A DNA stretch of 64,000 nt, taken from a virus (lineage: Duplodnaviria; Caudoviricetes). This document shows, in pieces, positions 1 through 15,958 of the stretch (position 1 is its first letter; each line of letters opens with the position of its first letter). The stretch lies in the IMG/VR virus record IMGVR_UViG_3300034062_005355; one strand, 5' to 3'. A program made the position numbers and the translations under genes. Below the pieces are notes generated by a model. It was not told where the DNA came from. It did not search any database and saw only the letters and a program-made list of their open reading frames with translations.

Positions 1-702
1 ATAACATTAGAAACAGGACAAAAATTATGGTTTACATCCGATACTCATTATGGACATACTAATATATGTCGCGGTGTAAGTAAATGGAAGGATTTTAACG
101 GTAATGTACCTATAAAACAAACTCGTGATTTTAAAACATTGTACCACATGAATGATGCTATTGTTGAATCAATCAACAATGTTGTTGGTGAGAATGATAT
201 TTTATTTCACTTGGGTGATTGGTCATTTGGTGGGTTTGAAAATATTGCCGAATTTAGAAACAGAATTGTTTGTAAAAACATCCACTTGATATTAGGTAAT
301 CACGATCATCATATTGAAAATAATAGAGATGATATACAGGACTTATTCAGTTCAGTGAACCAATATCTACGGTTACAAGTATCTGTTTACCCAGGTACTG
401 TATTACATACTGGTAAAGTAGATTTAGTATTAATGCATTATCCAATCGCAAGTTGGCACAACATGAATGATAATGTTATACATTTACACGGACACGTTCA
501 TTTACCTCCAAATAAAAAATTGGCACAAGGTAAAGCTATGGATGTTGGAGTTGATGGAAATGGTTTGATACCTTATTCATTAAATGAAATAACCAGAATA
601 ATGGATAAGCAACCTATCACTAAATTATCTTTACCTCAAGACCACCACGAGGAAAGAATAGAAGGTAATGGTGGAAATAAAAAGGGAGGATCAAAATTTT
701 AA
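1..702 (+). CDS. calcineurin-like metallophosphoesterase (5' end outside the window)
   Basis: Frame 1 is open from base 1 (ITLETGQKLWFTSDTHYGH...). Motifs DxH, GD, GNHD and HGHVH are present. Confidence 0.9.
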   Translation: MTLETGQKLWFTSDTHYGHTNICRGVSKWKDFNGNVPIKQTRDFKTLYHMNDAIVESINNVVGENDILFHLGDWSFGGFENIAEFRNRIVCKNIHLILGNHDHHIENNRDDIQDLFSSVNQYLRLQVSVYPGTVLHTGKVDLVLMHYPIASWHNMNDNVIHLHGHVHLPPNKKLAQGKAMDVGVDGNGLIPYSLNEITRIMDKQPITKLSLPQDHHEERIEGNGGNKKGGSKF

Positions 703-704
703 CT

Positions 705-896
705 ATGAAAAAAGACAATATTATTATCGACTATTATGTTGATTTGAAATCATTAGATTGGATGAAAGACTTATTTAGACAAAATAACTATAGTGCTATT
801 GATGAACTTGAGTTATGGAATTCATTATTAAATGTTCCAAAGGAAAACTTACCTGGACGTGCACCATCTTTAAACTATAATCAAAACGGAATATGA
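705..896 (+). CDS. hypothetical protein
   Basis: ATG ORF tightly packed between neighbouring genes. Confidence 0.6.
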   Translation: MKKDNIIIDYYVDLKSLDWMKDLFRQNNYSAIDELELWNSLLNVPKENLPGRAPSLNYNQNGI

Positions 897-1075
897 ATAA
901 CTATAAAGTAATTGAAGCACAATATATTCTTAGATTGGAAAAGGAAGTTAATGATCATCTTAAAGATGGATGGTTATTATCAGGAGGTGTTAATACCACG
1001 ACAGTCGTTAAACCAACTTTTAATGGTATAGAGTCTTGGATTACGTACTCACAAGCCATTTATAAAATTAACTAA
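893..1075 (+). CDS. small protein resembling DUF1737
   Basis: LEKEVNDHLKDGWLLSGG...YSQAI pattern; ATGA overlap with the upstream gene. Confidence 0.6.
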   Translation: MNNYKVIEAQYILRLEKEVNDHLKDGWLLSGGVNTTTVVKPTFNGIESWITYSQAIYKIN

Positions 1076-1076
1076 T

Positions 1077-1439
1077 ATGAATAGAGAATTCGCACCTTAC
1101 GAACCATCATTAAATTTAAAAGAATTGGGATTTGATGAACCTTGTTTTGGGTATTATTTATGTAAAAATTCTGCATTTGGTGTTGAATTAGAATTAACAA
1201 CAAATTGGATTGATTTACTACCTTATGATTCATCAAGTTGTAAAGCACCACTTTACCAACAAGCATTTAGATGGTTTAGAGAGAAGTATGGTTACTTACC
1301 TAATATCCATGATTTTAATGGAAATTTTAAAGCTACTTTAAGTGGTAATTGTAATTGGTTAGGAAGTTGGACAAAAACTTACGAAGAAGCAGAACTTGCT
1401 TGTCTTAAAAAATTAATTGAAATAGTAAAAAATAAATAA
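1077..1439 (+). CDS. tandem paralogue 1 of 3, unknown function
   Basis: Shared blocks MNxEFxPYE..LKELGFDEPC / APLYxQAFRWFREKY / TYEEAELACL. Confidence 0.85.
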   Translation: MNREFAPYEPSLNLKELGFDEPCFGYYLCKNSAFGVELELTTNWIDLLPYDSSSCKAPLYQQAFRWFREKYGYLPNIHDFNGNFKATLSGNCNWLGSWTKTYEEAELACLKKLIEIVKNK

Positions 1440-1440
1440 T

Positions 1441-1857
1441 ATGAATAAAGAATTTGTACCTTACGAACCATCATTAGCTTTAAAAGAATTAGGATTTGAT
1501 GAACCTTGTTTTGCCAATTATACTGTTATTCCTGAAGACAAAATAAATTGGTTTACTATCCCTGAACAAGGTATTACCGATAAAACTAGTTTTGGTTCAA
1601 GTAAGAATTACAACAGTAAATCTTTTGAAGAAGAAGGTACTATTTCAGCACCACTTTACTCACAAGCATTTAGATGGTTTAGAGAGAAGTATGATTTATT
1701 TGGAGTTGTAGAAGGAAAAGGATATGACTACAAAAGATATTACGTTTATAGTATTAATGGTAAATGGCATCCATCTCGACCTGGGTTAGATACATACGAA
1801 GAAGCAGAACTCGCTTGTTTAATTAAATTAATAGAAATAGTAAAAAATAATGAATAA
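1441..1857 (+). CDS. tandem paralogue 2 of 3, unknown function
   Basis: Same three conserved blocks. Confidence 0.85.
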   Translation: MNKEFVPYEPSLALKELGFDEPCFANYTVIPEDKINWFTIPEQGITDKTSFGSSKNYNSKSFEEEGTISAPLYSQAFRWFREKYDLFGVVEGKGYDYKRYYVYSINGKWHPSRPGLDTYEEAELACLIKLIEIVKNNE

Positions 1858-2224
1858 AGAATTTGTACCTTACGAAGAGTCGTTAGCTTTAAAAGAATTA
1901 GGATTTGATGAACCTTGTTTAGCACATTGGTATAATGAAACACCAACAAACTCAGAAGGTCAGTGTCTTGTTTATTATAAAAAACCTTGGGATAATCAAA
2001 AGATTATAAACGGAGTTATTAGAGACTATTATTTTGCACCAACCTACTCCCAAGCATTTAGATTTTTTAGAGAGAAGTATAACGCTCATATATACCCACA
2101 AAAGTTTACAGATAATACTTGGTATGTTAGTTGGGCAGATTGGGAAAGTCCTGTATTTGAAACCTACGAAGAAGCAGAACTTGCTTGTTTAATTAAATTA
2201 ATAGAAATTGTAAAAAATAAATAA
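1850..2224 (+). CDS. tandem paralogue 3 of 3, unknown function
   Basis: Same three conserved blocks. Confidence 0.85.
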   Translation: MNKEFVPYEESLALKELGFDEPCLAHWYNETPTNSEGQCLVYYKKPWDNQKIINGVIRDYYFAPTYSQAFRFFREKYNAHIYPQKFTDNTWYVSWADWESPVFETYEEAELACLIKLIEIVKNK

Positions 2225-2225
2225 T

Positions 2226-2633
2226 ATGAAAAAAATATATCTAGATGATGTTAGAACACCTGTGGACCCAAGTTGGGTGGTTGTTAGAAATTACGAGCAA
2301 TTTGTAGATAAAATTAATGAAATTGGTTTAGAGAATATTGAATTGATTTCATTAGATCATGACTTGGGTGATAGTGCCATGGTAGAATGGTATAATAATG
2401 TTTATCACAATTATGAATTGAATTATGATAACATCACCGAAAAAACTGGAATGGATTGTACCAAATGGTTAGTGGAACAATGGATGGATGGTAAACCAGT
2501 TGTAGATGTTGTTATTCATTCCGCAAATGCTATTGGTAGTGGTAATATGATGGGTTATATTAACAATTACAGACACATTAATAGATTACCACAAAATTGT
2601 GTTAGAGTTCAAATTGATCACACAGTTTACTAA
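2226..2633 (+). CDS. cyclic-phosphate-processing receiver-domain protein
   Basis: IYLDDVRTP, ISLDHDLG, GMDCTKWL and IHSAN motifs characteristic of this receiver-fold family. Confidence 0.75.
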   Translation: MKKIYLDDVRTPVDPSWVVVRNYEQFVDKINEIGLENIELISLDHDLGDSAMVEWYNNVYHNYELNYDNITEKTGMDCTKWLVEQWMDGKPVVDVVIHSANAIGSGNMMGYINNYRHINRLPQNCVRVQIDHTVY

Positions 2634-2667
2634 ATAATCTTTTTTTTGGAATTGTAATTTTTATGTA

Positions 2668-2675
2668 TATCTTTG
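2668..2675 (+). promoter_or_regulatory. Bacteroidota-type -7 promoter element TATCTTTG
   Basis: Matches TAnnTTTG. Similar sites at 3855, 4654, 8191, 14397 and 25547 (+), and 21299, 23659 and 28809 (-), all upstream of genes. Confidence 0.7.
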
Positions 2676-2696
2676 TAGTGTTAAAAAAATACGATT

Positions 2697-2894
2697 ATGA
2701 AAAACAACCCAACAATCAAAATACCTCAAAATGCGTCTGAAATGATGTTAACCACGAATGATGACATTATTCAATCAATACCACCTGATGATGAGTTCTC
2801 AGAGTGGGATGTAACCTTAATGGATGGTTTAGAAAACGAACCACCGTACAACCTTACAGATGATTGGGATAACATCAACGGAGATTTGGTGTAA
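2697..2894 (+). CDS. acidic hypothetical protein
   Basis: ATG ORF directly downstream of a TAnnTTTG site. Confidence 0.6.
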   Translation: MKNNPTIKIPQNASEMMLTTNDDIIQSIPPDDEFSEWDVTLMDGLENEPPYNLTDDWDNINGDLV

Positions 2895-2910
2895 TTCTAA
2901 ACATCCTAAT

Positions 2911-2984
2911 GGACCCTTAGCTCAGATGGTCAGAGCGGCGCGCTCATAACGCGAAGGCCGCAGGTTCAAGTCCTGCAGGGTCCA
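2911..2984 (+). tRNA. tRNA with CAT anticodon, probably Ile2
   Basis: Cloverleaf GGACCCT/AGGGTCC with loop CT-CAT-AA. G1-C72 argues against initiator; C4-G69 and overall similarity fit Ile2. Confidence 0.85.
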
Positions 2985-3007
2985 CAAACAAATAAAAATA
3001 AACTATT

Positions 3008-3175
3008 ATGCAACTAATATTTAACATTATCGTAACAATTTTATTTTTCTTACTTAGTATTATGTGGGGGAAAAAAAGTCTTTTAGACGTTTCAGTTAAA
3101 ACCTTACTATTTGGGTTATCTATTTACGGATTAATTTTAGTTATGTCGCATTTTGGTTATATCATAAAACAATAA
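3008..3175 (+). CDS. small membrane protein (55 aa)
   Basis: Translated by hand (MQLIFNIIVTILFFLLSIMW...); two hydrophobic segments. Confidence 0.6.
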   Translation: MQLIFNIIVTILFFLLSIMWGKKSLLDVSVKTLLFGLSIYGLILVMSHFGYIIKQ

Positions 3176-3178
3176 TTT

Positions 3179-3454
3179 ATGTACAGCGGAAAAATAATAA
3201 AACAATTTTCGGTAGGGTTATTAACAATAATAATATCAGGTTGCAACTTTGATATGAACAAAAAACCTGAACCAAATACGGTATCACAACCTGTTGAAAT
3301 TAAACAACTTGGTACATCTACAGAACCATATGATAGATATTATCAAATTTACACTTTAGAAGGATGTGAATATATTGTGGTAGATTTTGGAAACAATAAA
3401 TGGGGAACCCACAAGGGAAATTGTAAGAATCCAATTCACAATAAGACAAAATAA
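3179..3454 (+). CDS. putative lipoprotein
   Basis: Hydrophobic N-terminus ending in IISGC (lipobox-like). Confidence 0.55.
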   Translation: MYSGKIIKQFSVGLLTIIISGCNFDMNKKPEPNTVSQPVEIKQLGTSTEPYDRYYQIYTLEGCEYIVVDFGNNKWGTHKGNCKNPIHNKTK

Positions 3455-3457
3455 TTT

Positions 3458-3844
3458 ATGAAAATAGCGGTTATTGCACACGATGGAAAAAAGGCTGACA
3501 TGGTTGCCTTTGTAATGAAAAGATTGGAATTCTTCAAAAGGGTTGATGTTATTGCAACGGGAACAACAGGAAAACATATTGAACACGCAGGATTAGATGT
3601 TCAATGTATGAAGTCAGGACCACTTGGTGGTGATGCCCAAATTGCGTCAATGATTGCCGATGGTGAAATCTCAGGGGTTGTATTCTTTATTGACCCGTTG
3701 GAAGTTCATCCTCACCAAGTTGATGTAAACATGTTGTTAAGGATTTGTAATGTGTATAACACACCTTTGGCAACAAACTACATGACCGCATCATATATTA
3801 TTTCAGGTTTGGAAAAAAAGTTGAACCAGGAGTTGGCAAGTTAG
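3458..3844 (+). CDS. mgsA: methylglyoxal synthase
   Basis: IAHDGKK, ATGTTG, SGPLGGDAQI, FFIDPL, HQVDV and PLATN motifs. Confidence 0.95.
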   Translation: MKIAVIAHDGKKADMVAFVMKRLEFFKRVDVIATGTTGKHIEHAGLDVQCMKSGPLGGDAQIASMIADGEISGVVFFIDPLEVHPHQVDVNMLLRICNVYNTPLATNYMTASYIISGLEKKLNQELAS

Positions 3845-3882
3845 AAAAAAGTATTATCTTTGTATTACCAATTTTAATAACT

Positions 3883-4182
3883 ATGATAAACAATACAACA
3901 AAATTAGCAAAACTAACAAGTTTTTATGATACCACACTCAAAGCAACACCAAATCAACTAGTTGAAATATTAGGTGAAATGACCCATAAAGGATCTGGCG
4001 ACGGAAAGGTGTCAATGGAATGGGTTAGAGAAATGGGTGAAGAAGAAATAATTACAATATATGATTGGAAATATTATCGCAATATTGAGATGGATGAAGA
4101 AATTGAATGGCACATTGGAGGATATAATAAAGCCACTACCGAATTAGCAAAAGAAAAAATTTTAACACTTTTAAATAAATAA
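3883..4182 (+). CDS. hypothetical phage protein
   Basis: ATG ORF after a TAnnTTTG site at 3855. Confidence 0.7.
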   Translation: MINNTTKLAKLTSFYDTTLKATPNQLVEILGEMTHKGSGDGKVSMEWVREMGEEEIITIYDWKYYRNIEMDEEIEWHIGGYNKATTELAKEKILTLLNK

Positions 4183-4186
4183 ACAT

Positions 4187-4444
4187 ATGCCAGAATTTGA
4201 CACATACGTAGATGTTGATGTAGATGACTATATATCAGCATGTAGTAAACGAGAAATTGATGAACTTATTGACGCATTAATTGAGGATGGACATATTAGT
4301 CCAAGCGCAGCAAAACTACCCAATCATCTTGGGTTTTTAGAAAGTCTTTTCTTTGAAAAAATGGAAAAGTTAAAAGAAAAATATTATCGTCTTTCAAAAG
4401 AAGATGAAAGTATTTTGGAAGATTTATTTAAAAAATACTTATAA
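4187..4444 (+). CDS. hypothetical protein
   Basis: ATG ORF in operon arrangement. Confidence 0.7.
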   Translation: MPEFDTYVDVDVDDYISACSKREIDELIDALIEDGHISPSAAKLPNHLGFLESLFFEKMEKLKEKYYRLSKEDESILEDLFKKYL

Positions 4445-4486
4445 GAATTGACTTTTAGGGTTTTTGACTATATTTATAAAAACATT

Positions 4487-4576
4487 ATGAAAAATTTGAA
4501 CACATTTAATAGAACAGAACCAACACCGGCAAACGACGGATTAGGTAATCTATGCTTATGTTCAGATCTTAAATAA
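4487..4576 (+). CDS. putative leader peptide 1 (29 aa, MKNLNTFNRTEPTPANDGLGNLCLCSDLK)
   Basis: Short ORF whose 3' end contains ATGTTCAG, complementary to the downstream terminator arm. Confidence 0.5.
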   Translation: MKNLNTFNRTEPTPANDGLGNLCLCSDLK

Positions 4577-4600
4577 TGGAATAATAAAAAGCCAAATTTA

Positions 4601-4637
4601 AAAACCCTGAACATAAAAAGTTCGGGGTTTTTTGTTT
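4601..4637 (+). terminator. intrinsic terminator with alternative antiterminator pairing
   Basis: AAAACCCTGAAC / GTTCGGGGTTTT hairpin followed by a U tract. Confidence 0.75.
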
Positions 4638-4688
4638 TATAAGGTTTTTTGATTATCTTTGTAGTGTTCTTTGAAATATGGAAAATAT

Positions 4689-4761
4689 AGAGTAGTTGAC
4701 TAATTGGTAGGTCCCTTATTTTGGGGGTAAGTGCGTGCAAGTTCGAGTCTTGCCTACTCTA
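4689..4761 (+). tRNA. tRNA-Pro(TGG)
   Basis: Acceptor AGAGTAG/CTACTCT; anticodon arm CTTAT-TTTGGGG-GTAAG; TTCGAGT T loop. Atypical A1-U72 pair. Confidence 0.8.
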
Positions 4762-4767
4762 CATAAT

Positions 4768-4842
4768 GTCTCTTTAGCTCAGTTGGTTTAGAGCAATTGT
4801 TTGTTAAACAATAGGTCACAGGTTCAAGTCCTGTAGGGGACG
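4768..4842 (+). tRNA. tRNA-Asn(GTT)
   Basis: Cloverleaf; ATTGT-TTGTTAA-ACAAT; G73. Confidence 0.9.
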
Positions 4843-4921
4843 CAAATGTGTCTCGGTCCGCTCTGACGAAAGTCAACGACGAGGTCTCGGTGGACATAAC
4901 GCGTCTGATTCCACCCAAAAT

Positions 4922-4993
4922 GCGAGTATAGTATAGTGGTTATTATGCCTTCCTTCCAAGTAGGATACGCCGTTTCGATTACGGCTACTCGCT
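4922..4993 (+). tRNA. tRNA-Gly(TCC)
   Basis: GCGAGTA/TACTCGC; loop CTTCCAA; U73. Confidence 0.9.
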
Positions 4994-5008
4994 CTGAGTC
5001 GGTTTTTG

Positions 5009-5040
5009 TTCCTTTTCTTGGTATTTATTGAGAAAAGGAA
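5009..5040 (+). promoter_or_regulatory. hairpin over the endonuclease initiation region with TATTTAT in its loop
   Basis: TTCCTTTTCT (5009-5018) pairs with AGAAAAGGAA (5031-5040); ATG at 5044. Confidence 0.65.
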
Positions 5041-5043
5041 TTT

Positions 5044-5724
5044 ATGCCAAGAAAACAACACAAATATCATTACATTTATAAGACAACAAATATTATAAAT
5101 GGAAAATTTTACATTGGGATGCACTCAACCAGTAATTTAGAAGACGGTTATATGGGTAGTGGTGAAAGAATAACAAGAAGTTTAAAAAAATATGGTAAAG
5201 AAAATTTTAAAATTGAGATTTTAGAAATGTTACCAAATAGAGATTTATTAAAAAAAAGAGAGAAAGAAATTGTAAACCAAACATTATTAGAAGATAAATT
5301 ATGTATAAATTTAGTTTATGGTGGGGGTGGAGGTTTTATAAGTCCTGAAGGTGTTAAAAAAGGTAGAAAAACAACTGATAAAATATTACAAGAAAGATAT
5401 GGTGATAATTTTTTAAGTGTGATTTTCAAAAATTATTATAAAACGGTGACACCTGAAAAAAGAAAAATACAACTTGAAAAAATAAAACAAAGTAAGATTG
5501 ATTCTGGTTTTGATTTTGGTGGTACTTTTAGAGGAAAAACCCACAAAGATGAAACAAAAAAAATAATTGGTGAAAAAAATGCAATACATCAAAAAGGTGA
5601 AAAAAATTCACAATTTGGTACTTGTTGGATAACAAATGGAAAAGAAACTAAAAAAATTAAAAAAATTGACTTATATTTGTATCCTGAATGGGAATTAGGT
5701 AGAACTATAAAAAAGACGATATAA
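5044..5724 (+). CDS. free-standing GIY-YIG homing endonuclease
   Basis: YIYKTTNIINGKFYIGMH, GYMGSG and a NUMOD3-like GKTHKDETKKII segment. Confidence 0.9.
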   Translation: MPRKQHKYHYIYKTTNIINGKFYIGMHSTSNLEDGYMGSGERITRSLKKYGKENFKIEILEMLPNRDLLKKREKEIVNQTLLEDKLCINLVYGGGGGFISPEGVKKGRKTTDKILQERYGDNFLSVIFKNYYKTVTPEKRKIQLEKIKQSKIDSGFDFGGTFRGKTHKDETKKIIGEKNAIHQKGEKNSQFGTCWITNGKETKKIKKIDLYLYPEWELGRTIKKTI

Positions 5725-5768
5725 AATAAATTGGAATAAAGTTGGTTCGAAACCGACTATCGTCTCAC
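5715..5768 (+). ncRNA. minimal tRNA-like structure (acceptor stem and T arm only)
   Basis: GACGATA/TATCGTC acceptor and GTTGG-TTCGAAA-CCGAC T arm; no D or anticodon arm. Confidence 0.5.
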
Positions 5769-5769
5769 T

Positions 5770-6058
5770 GAGTAAGAGATACTCATAAGATTTGACACCT
5801 TTGCTTTAAAATGGTGTAGTTGTCGCCCACCACGACTTTAGAGGAGGGGGTCATGGGAATAAAGGATACTGGCATGTTTCCTCCCAGTAATGCTGATTTA
5901 TATTTTCATGTGGTAAGACACTAATGCGTTTGTTTTTAAGAAAACTAAACCGTTAAAATCTACTTATCCGCAATCTCAGGATGGGGAGCCAACCAAGCTA
6001 AACTACGATACGGGTTAATACCTGTGGGTTAGGGGTGACGGTCAGGAAAGACTGACAA
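5770..6058 (+). ncRNA. candidate structured ncRNA(s)
   Basis: ORF-free and GC-enriched, with hairpins TGAGTA/TACTCA, ACACC/GGTGT, AGTTGT/ACGACT, TACTGG/CCAGTA and GTCAG/CTGAC. Confidence 0.45.
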
Positions 6059-6062
6059 TTTT

Positions 6063-6135
6063 GGTCTCATGGTTGAATGGTTACAATTCCACCCTGTCAC
6101 GGTGCGAGATACGGGTTCGAATCCCGTTGAGACCG
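6063..6135 (+). tRNA. tRNA-Asp(GTC)
   Basis: GGTCTCA/TGAGACC; loop CTGTCAC; G73. Confidence 0.92.
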
Positions 6136-6141
6136 CAAAAA

Positions 6142-6215
6142 GCCTCCTTAGCTCAGCTGGCTAGAGCAACTGATTTGTAATCAGTAGGTCGTTGGTTCGA
6201 ATCCGACAGGAGGCT
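6142..6215 (+). tRNA. tRNA-Thr(TGT)
   Basis: GCCTCCT/AGGAGGC; ACTGA-TTTGTAA-TCAGT. Confidence 0.95.
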
Positions 6216-6246
6216 CATTTTTAATTTTAAAATAAACAAAAATTGT

Positions 6247-6354
6247 ATGAAAAAACTAAAAGAAATTTCGGGAAAAGATGTGATAGTTATTCTTGTATTT
6301 ATTGCGTGGGTTGTTGGAATGGTTTATATATTATCTAATACAAAAATCGTATAG
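6247..6354 (+). CDS. 35-aa single-pass membrane peptide
   Basis: MKKLKEISGKDVIVILVFIAWVVGMVYILSNTKIV, translated by hand. Confidence 0.5.
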   Translation: MKKLKEISGKDVIVILVFIAWVVGMVYILSNTKIV

Positions 6355-6362
6355 TAAACAAT

Positions 6363-6436
6363 GGGGATGTAGCTCAGTTGGCTAGAGCGCTTGATTTGCA
6401 TTCAAGAAGTCGTGGGTTCGAGTCCCTCCTTCTCCA
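6363..6436 (+). tRNA. tRNA-Ala(TGC)
   Basis: G3:U70 pair; CTTGA-TTTGCAT-TCAAG. Confidence 0.9.
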
Positions 6437-6454
6437 CAAATAAATAAATAAAAT

Positions 6455-6802
6455 ATGGCACATCCTAATATACACGCAAAAAGTTCCGCAAAAAAGTTTG
6501 GTGGGAAACCTGAAGACTACATTCATTTACACGAGTGGTTAGATGAAACCAAAAGTTGGATGGGAGATTCTTTGCATAGAATGTTCAGACATCATAGTGA
6601 GGGTATTTTTGAAATGGAAAAAAAGTTTGGGACAGAATTCATTAATAGTGATGAAAAAATTGTTTACACTCGTTATGTTGGAGAACAACACGTAAAAGAA
6701 GATTGTAACAATTATTTACCATCGGCAAAAGAATGGATGAACAATATTTTAGAAAATAAACGACCTCAATGGATGTTGAGGACACTTAAAATAGAAGATT
6801 GA
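6455..6802 (+). CDS. protein resembling DUF6915
   Basis: MAHPxxHAKSSAKKFGGKPEDY, RHHSEGI and EQHVKED motifs. Confidence 0.65.
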   Translation: MAHPNIHAKSSAKKFGGKPEDYIHLHEWLDETKSWMGDSLHRMFRHHSEGIFEMEKKFGTEFINSDEKIVYTRYVGEQHVKEDCNNYLPSAKEWMNNILENKRPQWMLRTLKIED

Positions 6803-7533
6803 TATTTATTGTTATGATAGAAATTTTAACTTCAGAAGAAAAAAAATACTTAAACAGAACTTGTAACTATCTTGCGTCATTAGGTATGACAGAAGGTCTA
6901 ATTGGTGTTGAAATGGATTCAGACCAATATGACTTATCACATGAAAATATTGATTGGAAATACATTCAACATTTTGATAATAACTATAGAGCAGAACTAC
7001 CTGAAGGATTACTACCAATTCTTAAAAAAGTAATGAATCATGTTATTGATGAGGATTTATATGATTATCCTGATATTGACTCAATGAGTTATCAAAGAAT
7101 TGAGATTGAAATTGATTGTACCCGAAAAGAACTTACAGTAAGTCACAATTATTCATATTATGGTAGAGGAGATGGTAGCTCAGTTGAATATGATTCTGAT
7201 GAAGATAAAGAAAGATTTGATAAGTGGATGGAAGAAGACATGCAAGATGTTGAGGTCCCAAGTGATGGTATTTTAACTTTAAGTTACAATGGCGGTGGAG
7301 ATTCTGGTTATATTGAAAGTTCATTTGACGAAGTCTTGGATGCGGTTCCTGCATCAATTGAAAATTGGTGTTATAGTCAACTTGAAAGTCATTTCGGTGG
7401 TTGGGAAATCAACGAAGGTTCTGACGGACGATTCATCTTTAATTTCAACAATTCAACCGTTGATTTAGACCATACTTACAACACAGAAGAAAGTGAATCA
7501 AATACTTTGTTTGAGGTTAACTTTTCAATATAA
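6799..7533 (+). CDS. acidic protein resembling DUF6878
   Basis: YNGGGDSG and GWEINEGSDG motifs; adjacent to the DUF6915-like gene. Confidence 0.55.
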   Translation: MIFIVMIEILTSEEKKYLNRTCNYLASLGMTEGLIGVEMDSDQYDLSHENIDWKYIQHFDNNYRAELPEGLLPILKKVMNHVIDEDLYDYPDIDSMSYQRIEIEIDCTRKELTVSHNYSYYGRGDGSSVEYDSDEDKERFDKWMEEDMQDVEVPSDGILTLSYNGGGDSGYIESSFDEVLDAVPASIENWCYSQLESHFGGWEINEGSDGRFIFNFNNSTVDLDHTYNTEESESNTLFEVNFSI

Positions 7534-7587
7534 GTTGTAATCTTTAATTTTATTTCCTAAATTTGTATTAAGAAAGAAACCAAAGTC

Positions 7588-7672
7588 GCCTGGGTGGTGT
7601 AACGGTAGCCACGCTAGACTTAAAATCTAGTGGACATAAACGTCCGTGCGGGTTCAAGTCCCGCCTCAGGTA
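7588..7672 (+). tRNA. tRNA-Leu(TAA)
   Basis: GCCTGGG/CTCAGGT; CTAGA-CTTAAAA-TCTAG; long variable arm. Confidence 0.92.
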
Positions 7673-7679
7673 CAAATAT

Positions 7680-7753
7680 GGTCTCATAGCTCAGATGGAT
7701 AGAGCAACGGTTTTCTAAACCGTAGGTCGTAGGTTCGAATCCTACTGGGACTA
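7680..7753 (+). tRNA. tRNA-Arg(TCT)
   Basis: ACGGT-TTTCTAA-ACCGT within a cloverleaf. Confidence 0.92.
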
Positions 7754-7855
7754 CAAAATCATTATCGTACCTTAGTGAGATACGACGCAATTTATACACT
7801 TAAACAACACGGGAGGGGCGTCTTTCCCGATGTGGCTGAAGCGATAATGATATTT

Positions 7856-7939
7856 GCCCCGATGGTGGAATGGTAGACACTCAAGTTTTAGGAACTTGTG
7901 TCGTAAGACGTGTCGGTTCGAGTCCGACTTGGGGTACCA
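7856..7939 (+). tRNA. tRNA-Leu(TAG), CCA encoded
   Basis: CAAGT-TTTAGGA-ACTTG; long variable arm; ends ACCA. Confidence 0.92.
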
Positions 7940-7950
7940 AAAAAAAATAT

Positions 7951-7980
7951 TTGACAAATACGAAACTTTTCGTATTATTG
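7951..7980 (+). promoter_or_regulatory. promoter with an internal 9-bp palindrome (possible operator)
   Basis: TTGACA (7951) followed by AATACGAAA-CT-TTTCGTATT (7957-7976), upstream of leader peptide 2. Confidence 0.45.
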
Positions 7981-7996
7981 TAATAATTATAAAACA

Positions 7997-8080
7997 ATGA
8001 GAACATCAATTAAACATATGTCGTCGATTATTAAGCAACAAGAGGTATTCTGTAGCTGGTATCGTCATATGCAAAATTGA
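7997..8080 (+). CDS. putative leader peptide 2 (27 aa, MRTSIKHMSSIIKQQEVFCSWYRHMQN)
   Basis: Its stop codon overlaps AGTTCGG, complementary to CCGAACT in the downstream terminator. Confidence 0.5.
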   Translation: MRTSIKHMSSIIKQQEVFCSWYRHMQN

Positions 8081-8131
8081 GTTCGGATATTAGGTAGTAC
8101 GTTAATAACAAGTTAGAAATAACAAGATATT

Positions 8132-8175
8132 AAAACCCCGAACTTTGAAAAAAAAGTTTGGGGTTTTTTGTTTTT
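8132..8175 (+). terminator. intrinsic terminator with alternative antiterminator pairing
   Basis: AAACCCCGAACTTT / AAAGTTTGGGGTTT hairpin plus U tract; similar in sequence to the 4601 hairpin. Confidence 0.75.
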
Positions 8176-8243
8176 ATCAAACTTTCGTATTACCTTTGTA
8201 TTCACAAACAAGAAGAAAGTTCTTTGACATCTTGGAAAAAAAT

Positions 8244-8317
8244 AGTCCTTTAGCTCAGTTGGTTAGAGCATCTGGTTTACATCCAGAGGGTCGTAGGTTC
8301 GAGTCCTACAGGGACTA
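8244..8317 (+). tRNA. tRNA-Val(TAC)
   Basis: TCTGG-TTTACAT-CCAGA within a cloverleaf. Confidence 0.92.
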
Positions 8318-8324
8318 CACAATT

Positions 8325-8396
8325 GGCCCTTTCATCTATCGGTTAGGATATTAGGTTTTCATCCTAAAAAGACGGGTTCGACTCCCGTAGGGGCTA
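8325..8396 (+). tRNA. tRNA-Glu(TTC)
   Basis: TTAGG-TTTTCAT-CCTAA; Glu-type D arm. Confidence 0.88.
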
Positions 8397-8402
8397 CCGT
8401 AA

Positions 8403-8692
8403 AGTCGGGGAGTAGGTTTTTATGTTGGTTGGTACCTACTCCCCCAGACAAAAAGAAATTGATAATGGTTTTCTCCATTCAACGGATGTCGACAATCCAG
8501 AATGGAATCAGAATTCATCACCCTTTGCTGAGGCCTCATTAAAACTCAGGAAGCAATTAAGATTGGGACGAGACGGGTATCCCAACATTATCAACAATAT
8601 TGTGTTGTTCCTGTGAGATAGGAATGAAATAGTCGGACGTATTTTAAATGTAATACTGTTTGCACAACACAGAGGACTTCTCAACCTCAAAT
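8403..8692 (+). ncRNA. candidate multi-stem ncRNA(s)
   Basis: 11-bp GGGGAGTAGGT/ACCTACTCCCC; TTGATAATG/CATTATCAA enclosing three hairpins; TGTGTTGT/ACAACACA domain. Confidence 0.5.
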
Positions 8693-8694
8693 TT

Positions 8695-8767
8695 GGTGTG
8701 ATAGCTCAGTAGGTAGAGCAGTAGACTGAAAATCTACGTGCCGGTGGTTCGATCCCACCTCTCACCA
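8695..8767 (+). tRNA. tRNA-Phe(GAA)
   Basis: GTAGA-CTGAAAA-TCTAC within a cloverleaf. Confidence 0.93.
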
Positions 8768-8843
8768 CGGAGTCCCGAAATAACGGGAAACCCCCACTCC
8801 CACATGGCAGCCAGTCCGTTAACCTGGTGAAGTGGGGTAAAAT

Positions 8844-8974
8844 GGTCAGGTGGCGGAATTGGTAGACGCTATGTGGTAAAGCTAACCACAAACAAAGCTG
8901 TGACGGACTCAAAAGTACAATGAGTTGAAATAGAAGATTACGCACGGTTATAGGTTCGAATCCTGTCCTGATTA
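8844..8974 (+). ncRNA. tRNA-Leu-like repeat element, copy 1 (131 nt)
   Basis: GGTCAGG-TG-GCGGAATTGGTAGACGC...ATAGGTTCGAATCCTGT-CCTGATT-A with a long structured insert. Confidence 0.8.
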
Positions 8975-8983
8975 CAAAAAAGA

Positions 8984-9015
8984 TTTGGTGAATTAAAATA
9001 TTAAACATATCTTTG
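8984..9015 (+). promoter_or_regulatory. repeated promoter cassette (TTTG-20 nt-TATCTTTG)
   Basis: Near-identical ~45-nt copies at 8978-9021, 9599-9642 and 12387-12430. Confidence 0.75.
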
Positions 9016-9034
9016 TATTGTTAAAAAAATAGTC

Positions 9035-9343
9035 ATGGAAGATAAAAAATCATTAAATAAAATCAAAAGAGAAACGCAATTGTTTTGGCTTGGTGAAAAT
9101 CGCCTTATCAAATGGTCGGATATTAAGCATTTACAATTAGAAGATGATGATGTAATCAGGTCATCATGGGAAGAGGACGATGATGACGGACGCGGGCTCT
9201 ATGTCGGAGAAATCACTAGAATGGTTGAAGAAACTGATGAACAATATCAAAAACGTCTATCTAATAATGAACTACATAATAAATGGGAAAAAGAAAGACG
9301 TTACGAAAGTTATTTAAAACTTAAAAAAGAGTTTGAAGAATAA
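9035..9343 (+). CDS. hypothetical protein within the repeat array
   Basis: ATG ORF after the promoter cassette; ends 6 nt before copy 2. Confidence 0.75.
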   Translation: MEDKKSLNKIKRETQLFWLGENRLIKWSDIKHLQLEDDDVIRSSWEEDDDDGRGLYVGEITRMVEETDEQYQKRLSNNELHNKWEKERRYESYLKLKKEFEE

Positions 9344-9348
9344 AATAT

Positions 9349-9439
9349 AGTCAGGTGGCGAAATTGGTAGACGCAGTCCTCGGGATAATGTCAAGAGGGT
9401 CGCGCCCTCAATTTACAGGTTCGAATCCTGTCCTGGCTA
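9349..9439 (+). ncRNA. tRNA-Leu-like repeat element, copy 2 (91 nt)
   Basis: AGTCAGG/CCTGGCT; D and T arms present; GAGGG-TCGCG-CCCTC hairpin; no canonical anticodon arm. Confidence 0.8.
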
Positions 9440-9504
9440 CAAAGGCAGATTGTTACTAATTCATAGCACCTGAAGAAAGTGGGAATGTCATAGAATTAGA
9501 ATTT

Positions 9505-9594
9505 AGTCAGGTTGCGGAATGTTAATAATTAACTTAGTGCAAGAATTAAGCTAACTAATAGTGGCGAGGAACCACAACTAAGTTAATTATTAAC
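9505..9594 (+). repeat. truncated copy (5' arm only) followed by an 18-bp perfect inverted repeat
   Basis: AGTCAGGTTGCGGAAT, then GTTAATAATTAACTTAGT (9521-9538) / ACTAAGTTAATTATTAAC (9577-9594). Confidence 0.75.
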
Positions 9595-9651
9595 CATAAA
9601 AAAAATTTGGCGGATTAAAATATTATACATATCTTTGTATTGTTATAAAAT

Positions 9652-9737
9652 AGTCAGGTGGCGCAAATGGATGACGGTCAAATAGGAGATAATATCAATA
9701 GGATGAAAGTATACAGGTTCGAATCCTGTCCTGACTA
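9652..9737 (+). ncRNA. tRNA-Leu-like repeat element, copy 3 (86 nt)
   Basis: Conserved ends; identical to copy 5 except for the first base. Confidence 0.8.
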
Positions 9738-9752
9738 CTAAAATTAAATGTT

Positions 9753-9917
9753 ATGGAAACGATTAATATTACAACAGAAGAACTAAAAAAATTAGTTGAA
9801 ACAGCAATTCAATTTGGGATCGATAGTCCTGAATTAGTCCCAAACCAAAAAGGAAGAGAAAAAATTGCAAATTGGATGGTAGATAACACCATTAAAGATA
9901 TAAAAGGACAAAGGTAA
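9753..9917 (+). CDS. hypothetical protein (54 aa) between repeat copies
   Basis: METINITTEELKKLVETAIQFGIDSPELVP..., translated by hand. Confidence 0.6.
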   Translation: METINITTEELKKLVETAIQFGIDSPELVPNQKGREKIANWMVDNTIKDIKGQR

Positions 9918-9923
9918 TAAAAT

Positions 9924-10032
9924 AGTCAGGTGGCGGAATTGGTCACCAAAGTAAGCCGTCTCCAAGCTTTGTGTAAAAGAGATGAATGCCTAATTTGAAA
10001 ACTACTTACAGGTTCGAATCCTGTCCTGACTA
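9924..10032 (+). ncRNA. tRNA-Leu-like repeat element, copy 4 (109 nt)
   Basis: AGTCAGGTGGCGGAATTGGT...ACAGGTTCGAATCCTGTCCTGACTA. Confidence 0.8.
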
Positions 10033-10184
10033 CAAAAATATGAAATTGAAAGGATAAATTACGTAATAGTCCAATCAATCAAGGGTTAACATCTCAAATG
10101 GTATGGATTTAGCGGTCCAAAGAGTATGGCAGGGGTTAACCATCAAAAACTTGGGAACGACCGATATGCCTTCATATTTCTTAT

Positions 10185-10270
10185 GGTCAGGTGGCGCAAA
10201 TGGATGACGGTCAAATAGGAGATAATATCAATAGGATGAAAGTATACAGGTTCGAATCCTGTCCTGACTA
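10185..10270 (+). ncRNA. tRNA-Leu-like repeat element, copy 5 (86 nt)
   Basis: Near-exact duplicate of 9652-9737. Confidence 0.8.
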
Positions 10271-10297
10271 CAAAATTAATAATTTAAATAAACAAAT

Positions 10298-10636
10298 ATG
10301 TTACCAAATTATCATACAAAATTAAATTTTGACGATGTCATAATCGTATCAACTAAAGAATTTCCGGGGATATTTTTTCCGGCTAAGATTGAACAAATCG
10401 TTGAATGTAATTTTATGGATAAAAATTCCATTAAAGTGGGTCGACCTGTTGGTGTTTACTATCAATATAATCTTAGAACCGTTGATTACGAAGATAACCC
10501 ATTTATTAATTTTCCTAATGTAGACACTAATTTCCTTACTTGGGACGAACTAAATAGTTTTGACACTTTGGATAGGTGGGTTGAAAATATGGGTTATTTT
10601 ATGAAAGGTGTGATTAAAATAGAAAAGATTGGATAG
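10298..10636 (+). CDS. hypothetical protein within the repeat array
   Basis: ATG ORF with an A-rich upstream region. Confidence 0.7.
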   Translation: MLPNYHTKLNFDDVIIVSTKEFPGIFFPAKIEQIVECNFMDKNSIKVGRPVGVYYQYNLRTVDYEDNPFINFPNVDTNFLTWDELNSFDTLDRWVENMGYFMKGVIKIEKIG

Positions 10637-10685
10637 AATGAAGTTGGATATTTAGAAAATATATTCTCAAAAATCAAATAAAAAT

Positions 10686-10798
10686 AGTCGGGTGGCGGAA
10701 TTGGTTAGACGCTAAGTGTGGGTTCGTAACCCTTGACCGTCTGGTAACAGATACACAGAGTAACACTCGTACAGGTTCGAATCCTGTCCTGACTACCA
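10686..10798 (+). ncRNA. tRNA-Leu-like repeat element, copy 6 (ends in ACCA)
   Basis: AGTCGGG/CCTGACT; branched insert with GGGTT/AACCC, TCTG/CAGA and GAGT/ACTC hairpins. Confidence 0.8.
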
Positions 10799-10987
10799 AG
10801 TTAACCACACTAAGACTAGAAACGTGGTGACGGATCGGAAAGACGACAAAACTACCACGATGCTTCCCGTAAGATCAGCACTATTTTCAGTGGTGATTTC
10901 TCCACGTAAACGAATAGCCCAAGGCATAAGTTATGGTGGATTACCAAACCTATCCTTAATGGACGCATTAAGTGAAGTTTGGGACAT

Positions 10988-11092
10988 AGTCAGGTGGCGG
11001 AATTGGTTAGACGCTAAACCATTAGAGATAAAATGTAGATTCTCAGTAAGGTAATATACTACATTATACAGGTTCGATTCCTGTCCTGACTA
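10988..11092 (+). ncRNA. tRNA-Leu-like repeat element, copy 7 (105 nt)
   Basis: Conserved ends; unique insert. Confidence 0.8.
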
Positions 11093-11109
11093 CAAAATAA
11101 ATAAAAATT

Positions 11110-11367
11110 ATGGAAAGATTAGTGCTTGATTATACTCATTGTTCTGAACCAGAATGTTGGGAACATAATATTCCTTTTGAATATGAATCAAAAGAGAAAT
11201 TTATATTTGATGTGATTGAATATCCAATGTTACTTAATTCTCTAATTGAATGTGTATATGAATGGATGTTGGATCCGGCTTATGAACATAAGATAGAGTT
11301 ATTAGAAAATATTGATCAATATATTTTTACATTAGATGAATGGTTTGAAAAAAATAAAAAAATATGA
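11110..11367 (+). CDS. hypothetical protein within the repeat array
   Basis: ATG ORF after copy 7. Confidence 0.7.
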   Translation: MERLVLDYTHCSEPECWEHNIPFEYESKEKFIFDVIEYPMLLNSLIECVYEWMLDPAYEHKIELLENIDQYIFTLDEWFEKNKKI

Positions 11368-11594
11368 AAGAAATACTTGAAAATAAAGATGTTGGTGATT
11401 ACGTACATGTTGATGGTTATACATCAATGGCACAACAAAACTTCCGTAAAACATCTATAATTGGAGTTGATTATAAATTTGATCCTGATACAGGTGATAA
11501 ATTTAAAATTCTTCAGATTGATAATGGTGAATGGTTTGATAGCCGGAATGGTGGTTGTTACTCAAATGAAAACTCAATGTATTATATTGAATAG
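11364..11594 (+). CDS. hypothetical protein within the repeat array
   Basis: ATGA overlap; ends 6 nt before copy 8. Confidence 0.7.
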   Translation: MKEILENKDVGDYVHVDGYTSMAQQNFRKTSIIGVDYKFDPDTGDKFKILQIDNGEWFDSRNGGCYSNENSMYYIE

Positions 11595-11600
11595 TTATTT

Positions 11601-11742
11601 AGTCAGGTGGCGGAATATAGACGCAGAAGTTAGAAGAGAGGGATTATCAATGTTGGTTAGTGGATTAATTACCTTGTCTAATGGATTAAATAACACACAC
11701 CAACTATTATGTGTTATACAGGGTTGTATCCTGTCCTGACTA
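11601..11742 (+). ncRNA. tRNA-Leu-like repeat element, copy 8 (142 nt, degenerate T loop)
   Basis: ACAGG-GTTGTAT-CCTGT-CCTGACT-A. Confidence 0.7.
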
Positions 11743-11800
11743 CACTAATTAAGCTAGTTTATGAACAGCCTTTGAGGTGAGATGCTCTCATTAGAATGGA

Positions 11801-11870
11801 AGTCAGGTAACTTAACTGGTAAAGGGGGTTGCGATAGTTTCCGTTACAGGTTCGAATCCTGTCCTGACTA
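11801..11870 (+). ncRNA. tRNA-Leu-like repeat element, copy 9 (70 nt, shortest)
   Basis: Conserved acceptor stem and T arm; altered D arm. Confidence 0.75.
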
Positions 11871-12000
11871 CAAAATTAACTGAGGAACCGAATAAGAAAG
11901 TAGGTAATAAGGTGTGGGATAGTTACGAATAACCACGATGGAAATTGGGATTATAACTCAAGCGTAAATAGGTTATAATTAGTAAGTTAATTTTTTAAAT

Positions 12001-12104
12001 AGTCAGGTGAGCGGAATGGCTATCGCACTGCAAAAACAGTTCTTATTTCGACATAAGATAACCAAGTGAAAGGCACTATACAGGTTCGAATCCTGTCCTG
12101 ACTG
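12001..12104 (+). ncRNA. tRNA-Leu-like repeat element, copy 10 (104 nt, G73)
   Basis: Insert of three hairpins: ACTG/CAGT, TCTTAT/ATAAGA and GTG/CAC. Confidence 0.8.
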
Positions 12105-12165
12105 CAAAATTTTTTTTGTTATTTAATATATTTTTTGTATTTTTGTATCCTAATCAAAAGACAAT

Positions 12166-12387
12166 ATGAAAAGAAAGACTATAAATGTGGATTTAGTGAA
12201 AGAAAAGGTTAATAAGTTATTATCTAATCCAAACATTATAATGGAGGAGAAATTGGGTGTAATAACAATGATTGAGTATGTATTACATGAAACCAACAAT
12301 TATAATGGTTTTATGTATTTAACACTTAATAATGGTGAGGCTCCAAAACTTGGTACTGATGAATGGGTAAGTAGGAAATATTTTTAA
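12166..12387 (+). CDS. hypothetical protein within the repeat array
   Basis: ATG ORF after a TAnnTTTG-like site. Confidence 0.7.
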   Translation: MKRKTINVDLVKEKVNKLLSNPNIIMEEKLGVITMIEYVLHETNNYNGFMYLTLNNGEAPKLGTDEWVSRKYF

Positions 12388-12445
12388 AAAAGATTTGGTG
12401 GATTAAAATATTATACATATCTTTGTATTCCAATAATAAAAAAAG

Positions 12446-12793
12446 ATGGAAAAATTAAGTAAAAAATATAAGACCTATTCTATAACAATGTACCGTAGAG
12501 GTATGGAGTTGGAAGTGATATGTGTAACCACAAGTAAGAAAAAATTTGCCGCGTTATGTGATATGCCCATCTCGAATGTTAATAACCATGGTTACTCATA
12601 TGATTTACGTTATCCAATCTGTAATGAAAATCCAGATAAGTTATACGCAAAACCAGGAATGGGTGGTGAAATAATGTATATCACAGAAAGAGGTGTGATA
12701 AAACCGTTGGAGGACTACATTAAGTTAATTGTCGAACATAGGGAAAAATATAAATCGTATAAAGATTATTTAGAAAAAACAAATCAAAGATAA
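12446..12793 (+). CDS. hypothetical protein within the repeat array
   Basis: ATG ORF after the repeated promoter cassette; ends just before copy 11. Confidence 0.75.
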   Translation: MEKLSKKYKTYSITMYRRGMELEVICVTTSKKKFAALCDMPISNVNNHGYSYDLRYPICNENPDKLYAKPGMGGEIMYITERGVIKPLEDYIKLIVEHREKYKSYKDYLEKTNQR

Positions 12794-12800
12794 AACAAAT

Positions 12801-12890
12801 AGTCAGGTGGTTTAAAGTTGGTTCGACTCCAAGATAGGATATGGTATCGTTGCGATTGGAAATTTACAGGTTCGAATCCTGTCCTGACTA
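12801..12890 (+). ncRNA. tRNA-Leu-like repeat element, copy 11 (90 nt)
   Basis: Conserved ends; insert contains a second T-arm-like hairpin TTGG-TTCGACT-CCAA. Confidence 0.75.
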
Positions 12891-13020
12891 CTGACACGCA
12901 CGGCAGCCGAAATGTAAAAGCGCTCAATGATTAGGCAATGCGAACGAACACACGGTCTACCTCACAGTGCGTAGGTAAGCTTCAAGGATCGTTGACAGCT
13001 CGGAATAGACGAGCAAATTT

Positions 13021-13162
13021 AGTCAGGTGGCGGAATTGGTTAGACTCGCTAATATAGGTATCGAAAGATAGACGATTCTACTCCGCAGGGTCATATTAGT
13101 CTATCCTAAAGTGATATGAGTAGACGCAATAGGAGTTACAGGTTCGAATCCTGTCCTGACTA
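13021..13162 (+). ncRNA. tRNA-Leu-like repeat element, copy 12 (142 nt)
   Basis: Conserved ends; insert closed by CTAATAT/ATATTAG with a TATC-GAAA-GATA hairpin. Confidence 0.8.
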
Positions 13163-13251
13163 CAAAAGTGTTGAGTTCAAATCCCAGTAGGGAAGTTTAT
13201 AAAGTATCTAAATAATAATTTAATTTAAAAACAAAAAAATAACTTACGAAG

Positions 13252-13500
13252 ATGAAAAGTTCAAGTAGTATCATTAATAGACAAAAAGAAATAGATAAGT
13301 TAAGAACAGAGTTGGAAACAATTTTAGCTAAAACTAAACACTTATCTAAAGGTGAAATAGGAACAAAAGGATATAATAAGGTTATAGACGAATTGAAAAA
13401 TAAAATATTAGAACTTGAACAGAGAACTAAATTAGATAGGATTAAAATTGGTGAAGGTGTGGATGATTTAAGTGATAATAGATTTAAAAGATATAAATGA
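13252..13500 (+). CDS. coiled-coil hypothetical protein
   Basis: ATG ORF. Confidence 0.65.
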   Translation: MKSSSSIINRQKEIDKLRTELETILAKTKHLSKGEIGTKGYNKVIDELKNKILELEQRTKLDRIKIGEGVDDLSDNRFKRYK

Positions 13501-13573
13501 TATTACTTCTACCGTTTTGCAGCTACCAGAAGGGCGGGATTTAGAACGATAAACTTTAAATAAAAATAAAATT

Positions 13574-13868: not shown

Positions 13869-13914
13869 CAAATCTCAGGAGTAATTAATCTGAGACTGAG
13901 TGATTCGAAACACT

Positions 13915-14819: not shown

Positions 14820-14843
14820 TTATTAGGTTTGTACCTATTAAAT

Positions 14844-15530: not shown

Positions 15531-15532
15531 AT

Positions 15533-15604: not shown

Positions 15605-15610
15605 CACAAT

Positions 15611-15954: not shown

Positions 15955-15958
15955 CAAA

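Follow-up and report, generated by a model that had tools for sequence, protein, structure and literature searches.

The DNA analyzed here, called the window below, is a stretch of 64,000 nucleotides (64 kb) that is AT-rich (31.6% G+C) and comes from an uncultured lake phage of Bacteroidota. It carries 25 tRNA genes between positions 2911 and 17466, all on the + strand, to which the feature coordinates below refer. Strong + strand terminators were found in positions 1-19000 at only three places, 4600, 8132 and 16942, with none between 4632 and 8132, and these three bound two tRNA blocks. Block 1 (4689-7939) holds nine tRNAs, namely Pro, Asn, Gly, Asp, Thr, Ala, Leu(taa), Arg(tct) and Leu(tag), the first three starting at 4689, 4768 and 4922, as well as an inserted GIY-YIG gene and two DUF genes. 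Block 2 (8244-17466) holds 14 tRNAs between 8244 and 16414 and, in addition, Ser-gct at 17380. A blastn search for cultured phage relatives in INPHARED returned matches to tRNA genes only, and tblastn with a 698-aa protein gave no match. Near-identical DNA was present in 19 lake or freshwater metagenome DNA runs from 2016-2024; the sole RNA run in the run search was a peat metatranscriptome, with a share of 0.04, and a second query listed none.

Mobile genes are breaking up the tRNA blocks. Between tRNA-Gly and tRNA-Asp of block 1, at 5044-5724, lies a GIY-YIG homing-endonuclease gene (PF01541, E=5e-5), and a related contig (L001) has a different ORF instead, between tRNA-Asn and tRNA-Gly. In the region 9652-13868, Rfam tRNA models matched weakly about ten times, with long inserts, and there are repeated pseudo-ORFs in which ...YRFESCPDYK corresponds to T-arm sequence; these tRNA-shaped RNAs are inside block 2 and were left out of its tRNA count. 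Further downstream, 19021-19098 shows a sub-threshold match to the Rfam Phe_leader model (32.4 bits against a gathering score of 55; E=0.055).

Anatomy of the element ahead of block 1

Block 1 is preceded by a compact unit, element 1, in which a 29-codon upstream ORF is followed by an intrinsic terminator and then by tRNA-Pro, tRNA-Asn and tRNA-Gly, exactly as laid out in a preliminary description of this DNA. The ORF, uORF1 (4487-4576), encodes MKNLNTFNRTEPTPANDGLGNLCLCSDLK between an ATG at 4487, in an A-rich context, and a TAA at 4574-4576, and there are synonymous third-position changes among its homologues. A putative promoter of the leader transcript, P1 (4448-4476), consists of TTG at 4448-4450, 18 nt and TATATTTA at 4469-4476. 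Its predicted start is about 4-7 nt 5' of the ATG, and its block TTTTTGACTATATTTATA is invariant in five homologues. The intrinsic terminator (4600-4632, with a T-tract to 4638) has 13 pairs including an A/U extension, and its core is formed by CCCTGAAC (4605-4612) and GTTCGGGG (4620-4627) around the 7-nt loop ATAAAAA (4613-4619). Folded alone, it reaches -16.9 kcal/mol.

Four pairing segments can be recognized. Segment 1 (AUUUGAACA, 4494-4502) falls in codons 3-6 and pairs with segment 2 (4556-4567), which holds the invariant GTTCAG at 4560-4565 and has either segment 1 or segment 3 as its partner. Segment 3 (4605-4616) includes the 5' arm of the terminator, and segment 4 (4620-4627) is the 3' arm, with the T-tract next to it. 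Codons 6-22 (4502-4552) make up the stretch that we call the sensor track. In constrained folds, segments 2 and 3 are juxtaposed by a spacer hairpin (4569-4601) with the helices UUAAAU/AUUUAA and UGG/CCA; judged by eye, these helices differ by subfamily (AATCA/TGATT, TTGG/CCAA, TTTTTG/CAAAAA).

Promoters and a boxA-like motif

Scanning the window with the Bacteroidota promoter pattern TTTG-N18-22-TAnnTTTG gave 11 + strand sites and 5 - strand sites. An attempt to read these promoters as sigma-70 sites was given up for this -33/-7 pattern, which fits all 16. One of them is P2 (4631-4661), a near-consensus internal promoter with TTTG at 4631-4634, N19 and TATCTTTG at 4654-4661, whose -33 element is provided by the T-tract of the terminator. 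The preliminary description had cautioned that a TAnnTTTG site at 4654 could drive the tRNAs independently, and this caution is borne out, as the site belongs to a good promoter between the terminator and the tRNAs. A promoter 3' of the terminator is found in the window phage and in most relatives. Genes behind a leader-peptide attenuator usually, though not by strict definition, depend on the leader promoter. The tRNAs of the window phage are not dependent on it alone, and any read-through would here only add to basal tRNA transcription from P2; several further promoters within block 2 are a counterpoint of the same kind.

An own promoter, a terminator and P2 directly after it are also what one would expect of an independent small gene, in which P1, the ORF and the terminator form a unit for a functional peptide or an RNA of about 150 nt and the terminator insulates this unit from P2 and the tRNAs. 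The small stable RNAs in the tRNA cluster of T4 offer a model for such a gene. We consider this explanation unlikely, and part of the evidence against it comes from relatives in which P2 is absent (L089, L071/L095 and L108). The -7 box is deleted in L071/L095 and missing in L108, which has no promoter past the terminator; neither has L089, where tRNA-Pro begins 9 nt past the terminator stem, directly after a T-tract of nine T's. In these relatives, read-through would be the sole route to the tRNAs, which argues that the terminator is conditionally passed.

The region of P1 (4448-4476) resembles that of P2 (4631-4661), and the same is seen ahead of block 2, where 7950-7980 resembles 8167-8198 (e.g. 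GGGTTTTTGACTATATTTAT versus AGGTTTTTTGATTATCTTTGT). The likeness gives the impression that the unit of leader and terminator entered a promoter by insertion or arose from one by duplication.

The boxA-like motif GTTCTTTGAAAT (4666-4677) is situated 13 nt 5' of tRNA-Pro. Sequences of the form GTTCTTTGA(A/C)AT occur exactly twice in the window, at 4666-4677 and 8219-8230, in both cases 3' of a promoter and 13-15 nt 5' of the first tRNA of a block. In related loci (L001, L039, L041, L069, L029, L099, L050, L108 and L124), 14 of 24 boxA-like hits are followed by a tRNA at a distance of less than 40 nt, and they usually come immediately 3' of a TAnnTTTG box. We take the motif to resemble the boxA (NusB/NusE) antitermination site of rRNA operons (TGCTCTTTAACAA in E. 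coli); if this reading is correct, tRNA transcripts would be termination-resistant once past the attenuator. Reading GTTCTTTGAC as the -33 element of a further promoter was rejected, with no -7 box found at the right distance. In L108, a tRNA-like sequence (GGGATGTAGCTCAGTTGG...) follows the boxA-like motif past the attenuator, at about 960-1040; it received no ARAGORN call, and the first called tRNA is 640 nt further.

Alternative pairings

The complementarity noticed in the preliminary description holds to the letter: ATGTTCAG (4558-4565, codons 24-27) is the exact reverse complement of CTGAACAT (4607-4614), which comprises CTGAAC from the terminator 5' arm and AT from the start of the loop. 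The resulting 2:3 duplex has a free energy of -9.0 kcal/mol and finds its equal in 63 of 1000 shuffles of the upstream region that keep the dinucleotides, so that this 8-nt match, taken as a single sequence, is only suggestive; it becomes significant through its conservation in homologues and through the codon/tRNA match described below. Such an unremarkable single-sequence duplex would also fit a coincidence, with an untranslated ORF, a hairpin that is the plain terminator of the upstream gene (4187-4444) and matches that arose by chance. This explanation is scarcely credible and already disfavoured, given 26 distinct conserved sequences from many metagenomes, sampling nulls that were beaten in all but at most 12 of about 12,500 windows for uORF1 and in every window for uORF2, and the recurrence of the pattern in two further leader families.

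The leader hairpin (1:2) reaches -22 kcal/mol, with 1 of 500 shuffles as good by MFE folding, and the leader fold has z=-6.4, which a small RNA gene would equally account for. Segment 1 (4494-4502) pairs with 4559-4567 in this hairpin, and further pairs between 4483-4488 and 4573-4578 lengthen the helix so that it spans the start and stop codons. When the ORF centre was masked as a mimic of a stalled ribosome, 4556-4565 paired with 4607-4616. This antiterminator, whose 5' strand sits at the end of uORF1, excludes the terminator, and a constrained fold with a ribosome placed at the stop codon allowed the terminator to form. A counterpoint is that the 2:3 pairing is weaker than the terminator (-16.9 kcal/mol), both as a bare duplex and as the whole antiterminator fold including the spacer hairpin (-12.8 kcal/mol).

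Conservation in family 1

Four viral contigs that share this arrangement were first reached through the upstream 85-aa gene, and scans of viral and metagenome contigs for the terminator core added further homologues. The resulting family 1 consists of 26 distinct sequences from many metagenomes; one contig (L057) is identical to the window at element 1. A search pattern made of the uORF start and TGTTCAGA was discarded, as it mostly retrieved an unrelated phage gene (L043-L049). All 26 homologues have an open uORF1 frame of 23-33 codons that begins at the same ATG, while stops interrupt the remaining two frames, one in 26 and the other in 25 of the sequences. Such an open frame would not be kept by a pure RNA gene. 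The intrinsic terminator is conserved as well and stands between uORF1 and the tRNA genes.

GTTCAG is invariant in all 26 sequences, and it is so in three contexts: split across codons as T-GTT-CAG, as in-frame GTT CAG, owing to a 1-nt insertion (the L034 type), or immediately 3' of the stop codon (L051/L121). Over GTTCAG, the Cys codons are not conserved and give way to Arg or Ser codons in relatives. Retention of GTTCAG across these contexts, together with replacement of the Cys codons, indicates a constraint on the RNA and not on the peptide. For a small gene it would be hard to explain that the sole invariant nucleotides at the ORF end are the complement of the terminator arm. The high nucleotide conservation of the whole unit, untranslated spacer included, is a point in favor of that explanation, and so is the Rfam search, which gave no hit at E<=0.1 in 4400-4700 or in the leader of block 2 (7997-8080), including the Trp, His, Thr, Leu and Phe_leader and T-box models, making an undescribed RNA possible.

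Both alternative pairings can form throughout family 1. The 1:2 duplex is possible in 26 of 26 sequences at -5.1 to -14.6 kcal/mol, with G-U pairs and flank changes, and the 2:3 duplex in 26 of 26 at -8.6 to -12.4 kcal/mol; a stop codon is near segment 2 in every homologue. From the family alignment, RNAalifold recovered the terminator alone; MAFFT had misplaced GTTCAG in four rows, and the pairings were for this reason counted by anchored duplex folds. The preliminary description had named covariation of the pairing in homologous loci as a check. The pairing itself is kept in every family-1 sequence, but it shows almost no covariation within the family because the search pattern fixed the terminator arms; clear covariation is seen when elements 1 and 2 are compared, and also inside family 2. 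By eye, the outer pair between segments 2 and 3 is A-U or G-C in seven sequence types and mismatched in six.

Across the 26 leaders, 89% of the residues of the central track are P, N, G, D, T, A, L or R, compared with 45% in phage proteins. The order of these residues varies between subfamilies, showing that composition is conserved and not peptide sequence. Drift in residue order under a stable composition is not what a gene for a functional peptide would lead one to expect.

The terminator hairpin (CCCTGAACA...GTTCGGGG followed by a T-tract) was also observed directly after ordinary-looking tRNA genes on apparently bacterial metagenome contigs (L054, L055, L061, L074, L084, L087, L097, L100, L117, L123 and L125). 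L087 has three tandem copies of a tRNA 3' fragment with the terminator. The phage terminator may be derived from host tRNA-operon terminators.

Element 2 and a second leader family

A sister unit, element 2 (7950-8230), is found ahead of block 2, whose first tRNA is tRNA-Val. It has a predicted leader promoter (7950-7980), a 27-codon uORF2 (7997-8080), a segment 2 (AGTTCGG, 8080-8086) that overlaps the stop codon, a terminator (8132-8167), an internal promoter (8167-8198) and the boxA-like motif at 8219-8230. A sub-threshold Rfam match to NsiR1 covers 8111-8171 in its terminator region. The 1:2 hairpin is formed by 8001-8012 with 8075-8084, and AGTTCGG can pair with its complement CCGAACT in the 5' arm of the terminator (-12.1 kcal/mol; 19 of 1000 shuffles as good). 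Comparison of the paralogues reveals a compensatory pair, with CCCTGAAC matched to GTTCAG in element 1 and CCCCGAAC to GTTCGG in element 2. In relatives of element 2, the stop codon TGA is changed to TGT and the ORF reads through the conserved AGTTCGG.

An unrelated leader family, family 2, is represented by L029, L050, L099 and L108 and has leaders of 34-38 codons. Its segment 2 offers 12-14 nt of complementarity to the terminator arm and an A-rich flank, at -17 to -17.6 kcal/mol, and 0-3 of 1000 shuffles give an antiterminator as good. The flanks are compensatory, with AAGAACCC facing GGGTTCTT in L108 and ACAAACCC facing GGGTTTGT in L029. Family 2 also has its own segment 1, and its predicted leader promoters have the consensus TTG-N19-TAnnTTTG in the same place as P1.

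Recurrence of the terminator core 3' of bacterial tRNA genes as well as across leader families that are unrelated, fusion of the terminator to a promoter, the likeness of P1 and P2 in both elements and the homing-endonuclease traffic in the region would all suit cassettes that are shuffled by recombination. T4-type phages have promoter-early stem-loops (PeSLs), many near-identical modules of a stem-loop and an early promoter that flank variable ORFs. By analogy, terminator and promoter modules would serve as recombination sites, and the complementarity would be a by-product of repeated terminators. We regard this as highly unlikely as a full account: the window has only two such modules (4600-4661 and 8132-8198), both before tRNA blocks, and neither the codon/tRNA match nor the 1:2 hairpin nor the placement of the stop codon is predicted by it. 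Shuffling of this kind could moreover coexist with an attenuator instead of replacing it.

Leader codons match the downstream tRNAs

Cognate codons were assigned by simple wobble rules, and sliding windows over the long ORFs of the phage itself (13,517 codons) served as the null. uORF1 contains a cognate codon for 9 of 9 block-1 tRNAs, a coverage reached in 12 of 12491 windows. Altogether 19 of its 28 codons are cognate to block 1, compared with a pool fraction of 0.33, and no window among 12491 reaches 19. Similarly, uORF2 covers 14 of the 15 block-2 tRNAs (0 of 12567 windows, 0 of 100000 iid draws), with 23 of 26 codons cognate at a pool fraction of 0.51 (0 of 12567 windows, 7 of 100000 iid draws). 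The two leaders divide the tRNA set between them: uORF1 has 19 block-1 and 7 block-2 codons and uORF2 has 3 and 23 (Fisher p=1.3e-5), p-values here being post hoc because the codon-match hypothesis was formed after the peptide had been seen. The match was replicated in three independent leader families, and the family-2 leaders cover 11 of 11, 16 of 17 (0 of 12187 windows), 14 of 17 and 8 of 8 tRNAs of their own arrays.

The partition extends to individual codons. uORF2 has Trp, Cys, His, Tyr, Met, CGT and AGC codons and is without Leu, Ala, Gly, Asp and Pro. Its three non-cognate codons, AGA, ACA and AAT, all belong to pairing segments. Arg is encoded by AGA in the centre of uORF1, and block 1 has Arg-tct; in uORF2 it is encoded by CGT or CGC, and block 2 has Arg-acg, CGY making up 16% of the Arg codons of the pool. 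Some observations point the other way. Some relatives are without a tRNA whose codon remains in the leader; L002, for example, has no Asn, Thr or Ala tRNA in 6 kb. Each tRNA is represented by one to five leader codons, so that a marked stall would call for strong depletion.

An independent small gene leaves unexplained why its ORF should mirror the tRNAs of the downstream unit, and why a second unit should mirror the complementary set. The block-specific codon match and the invariant strand at the ORF end are explained by none of the three alternatives, be it a small gene, shuffled cassettes or chance.

A probable multivalent attenuator of phage tRNA genes

The preliminary description had recognized the layout of a ribosome-coupled attenuator, and the features reported here agree with that layout: a conserved ORF, segments able to pair as 1:2, 2:3 and 3:4, a stop codon near segment 2 and cognate leader codons. 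The segment 1 strand, the codon/tRNA match and the boxA-like motif were absent from that description. We regard element 1 as a conserved and real regulatory element. We put the probability at about three in four that it is a multivalent leader-peptide attenuator of phage tRNA genes that senses decoding speed.

Such an attenuator would operate as follows. Transcription from P1 would yield a nearly leaderless 29-codon message that is translated with the polymerase coupled to the ribosome. If no ribosome loads, segment 2 would be held by segment 1, 3:4 would pair and the polymerase would terminate at 4632-4638. A ribosome that has arrived at the stop codon, covering GTTCAG or past it, would sequester segment 2 and likewise leave the 3:4 terminator to form. 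The sensor track has one or more codons for every one of the nine tRNAs encoded up to the next terminator, and a ribosome delayed at codons 6-22 would block segment 1. The freed segment 2 would then pair with segment 3, aided by the spacer hairpin; no terminator would form and the polymerase would enter the tRNA block. The output would be tRNA beyond the supply from P2, with negative feedback on those tRNAs, host and phage, in their charged form, and element 2 would play the same role for the remaining tRNAs. To our knowledge, coupling of transcription and translation has not been established in Bacteroidota. The phage probably makes extra tRNA when ribosomes slow on leader codons; the tie to host anticodon nucleases as a physiological trigger, which the preliminary description had suggested, is speculation.

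Comparison with known systems

Classical attenuation is known from trpL and hisL, and multivalent leaders from the enterobacterial thrL, ilvGMEDA and ilvBN systems. Element 1 is like the thr and ilv leaders in its short leader ORF, its intrinsic terminator and its four segments pairing as 1:2, 2:3 and 3:4, and in regulatory codons that are cognate to what the operon supplies; like them, it would sense several codons with one leader. Unlike them, it would gate tRNA genes and not biosynthetic enzymes, and instead of runs of one to three amino acids it has one to five codons each for nine (or 14) tRNAs. It also differs in belonging to a Bacteroidota phage, in its nearly leaderless message and in the second promoter past the terminator, and it shows no sequence similarity to known leaders, Rfam having given no hit in 4400-4700.

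Attenuation is also known to act on components of the decoding apparatus. The E. coli pheST attenuator, with its pheM leader, senses one amino acid and controls a synthetase, and the T-box leaders of aminoacyl-tRNA synthetase genes dispense with the ribosome and themselves bind uncharged tRNA. Element 1 would share with both the attenuation of such a component by the state of its cognate tRNA; it has no T-box features, in line with the negative Rfam search. The T4 PeSLs and small stable RNAs are alike in that such modules are found inside a phage tRNA region with GIY-YIG homing endonucleases; we know of no report of a codon-matched ORF or of a terminator/antiterminator alternative in them.

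In its general sensing of stalling, element 1 would resemble the mycobacterial whiB7 uORF. Stalling on this uORF leads to antitermination, its amino-acid composition sets which shortages are sensed, and whiB7 is activated by knock-down of tRNAs and tRNA synthetases (PMC10274678). In that system the target of control is a transcription factor and the uORF is alanine-enriched (PMC10274678); the phage leaders, by contrast, match their tRNA block codon for codon, and two leaders divide the tRNA set.

Significance

Our search of the literature on phage tRNA genes found no description of attenuation or leader-peptide control of tRNA genes. Why phages carry tRNA genes, and how these are timed and dosed, is still debated. 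If the attenuator proposed here is real in the sense outlined above, the phage measures its own decoding capacity and corrects a shortfall, and textbook attenuation would be widened from amino-acid supply to tRNA supply. The proposal makes a directly testable prediction, namely that read-through responds to depleting one cognate tRNA or to recoding one codon. A leader composition that equals the downstream tRNA set could serve as a signature to define tRNA transcription units in uncultured phages, and the leader would represent a compact sensor of codon-specific translation speed for Bacteroidota.

On balance, we favor a broader view in which large Bacteroidota phages monitor how fast ribosomes decode each codon class that is served by a tRNA of their own. 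At least two leader test tracks would divide the tRNA set, each gating its own unit and each followed by a boxA-like antitermination site. Such an arrangement would constitute a homeostatic circuit of tRNA supply, and it could answer depletion or cleavage of host tRNAs.
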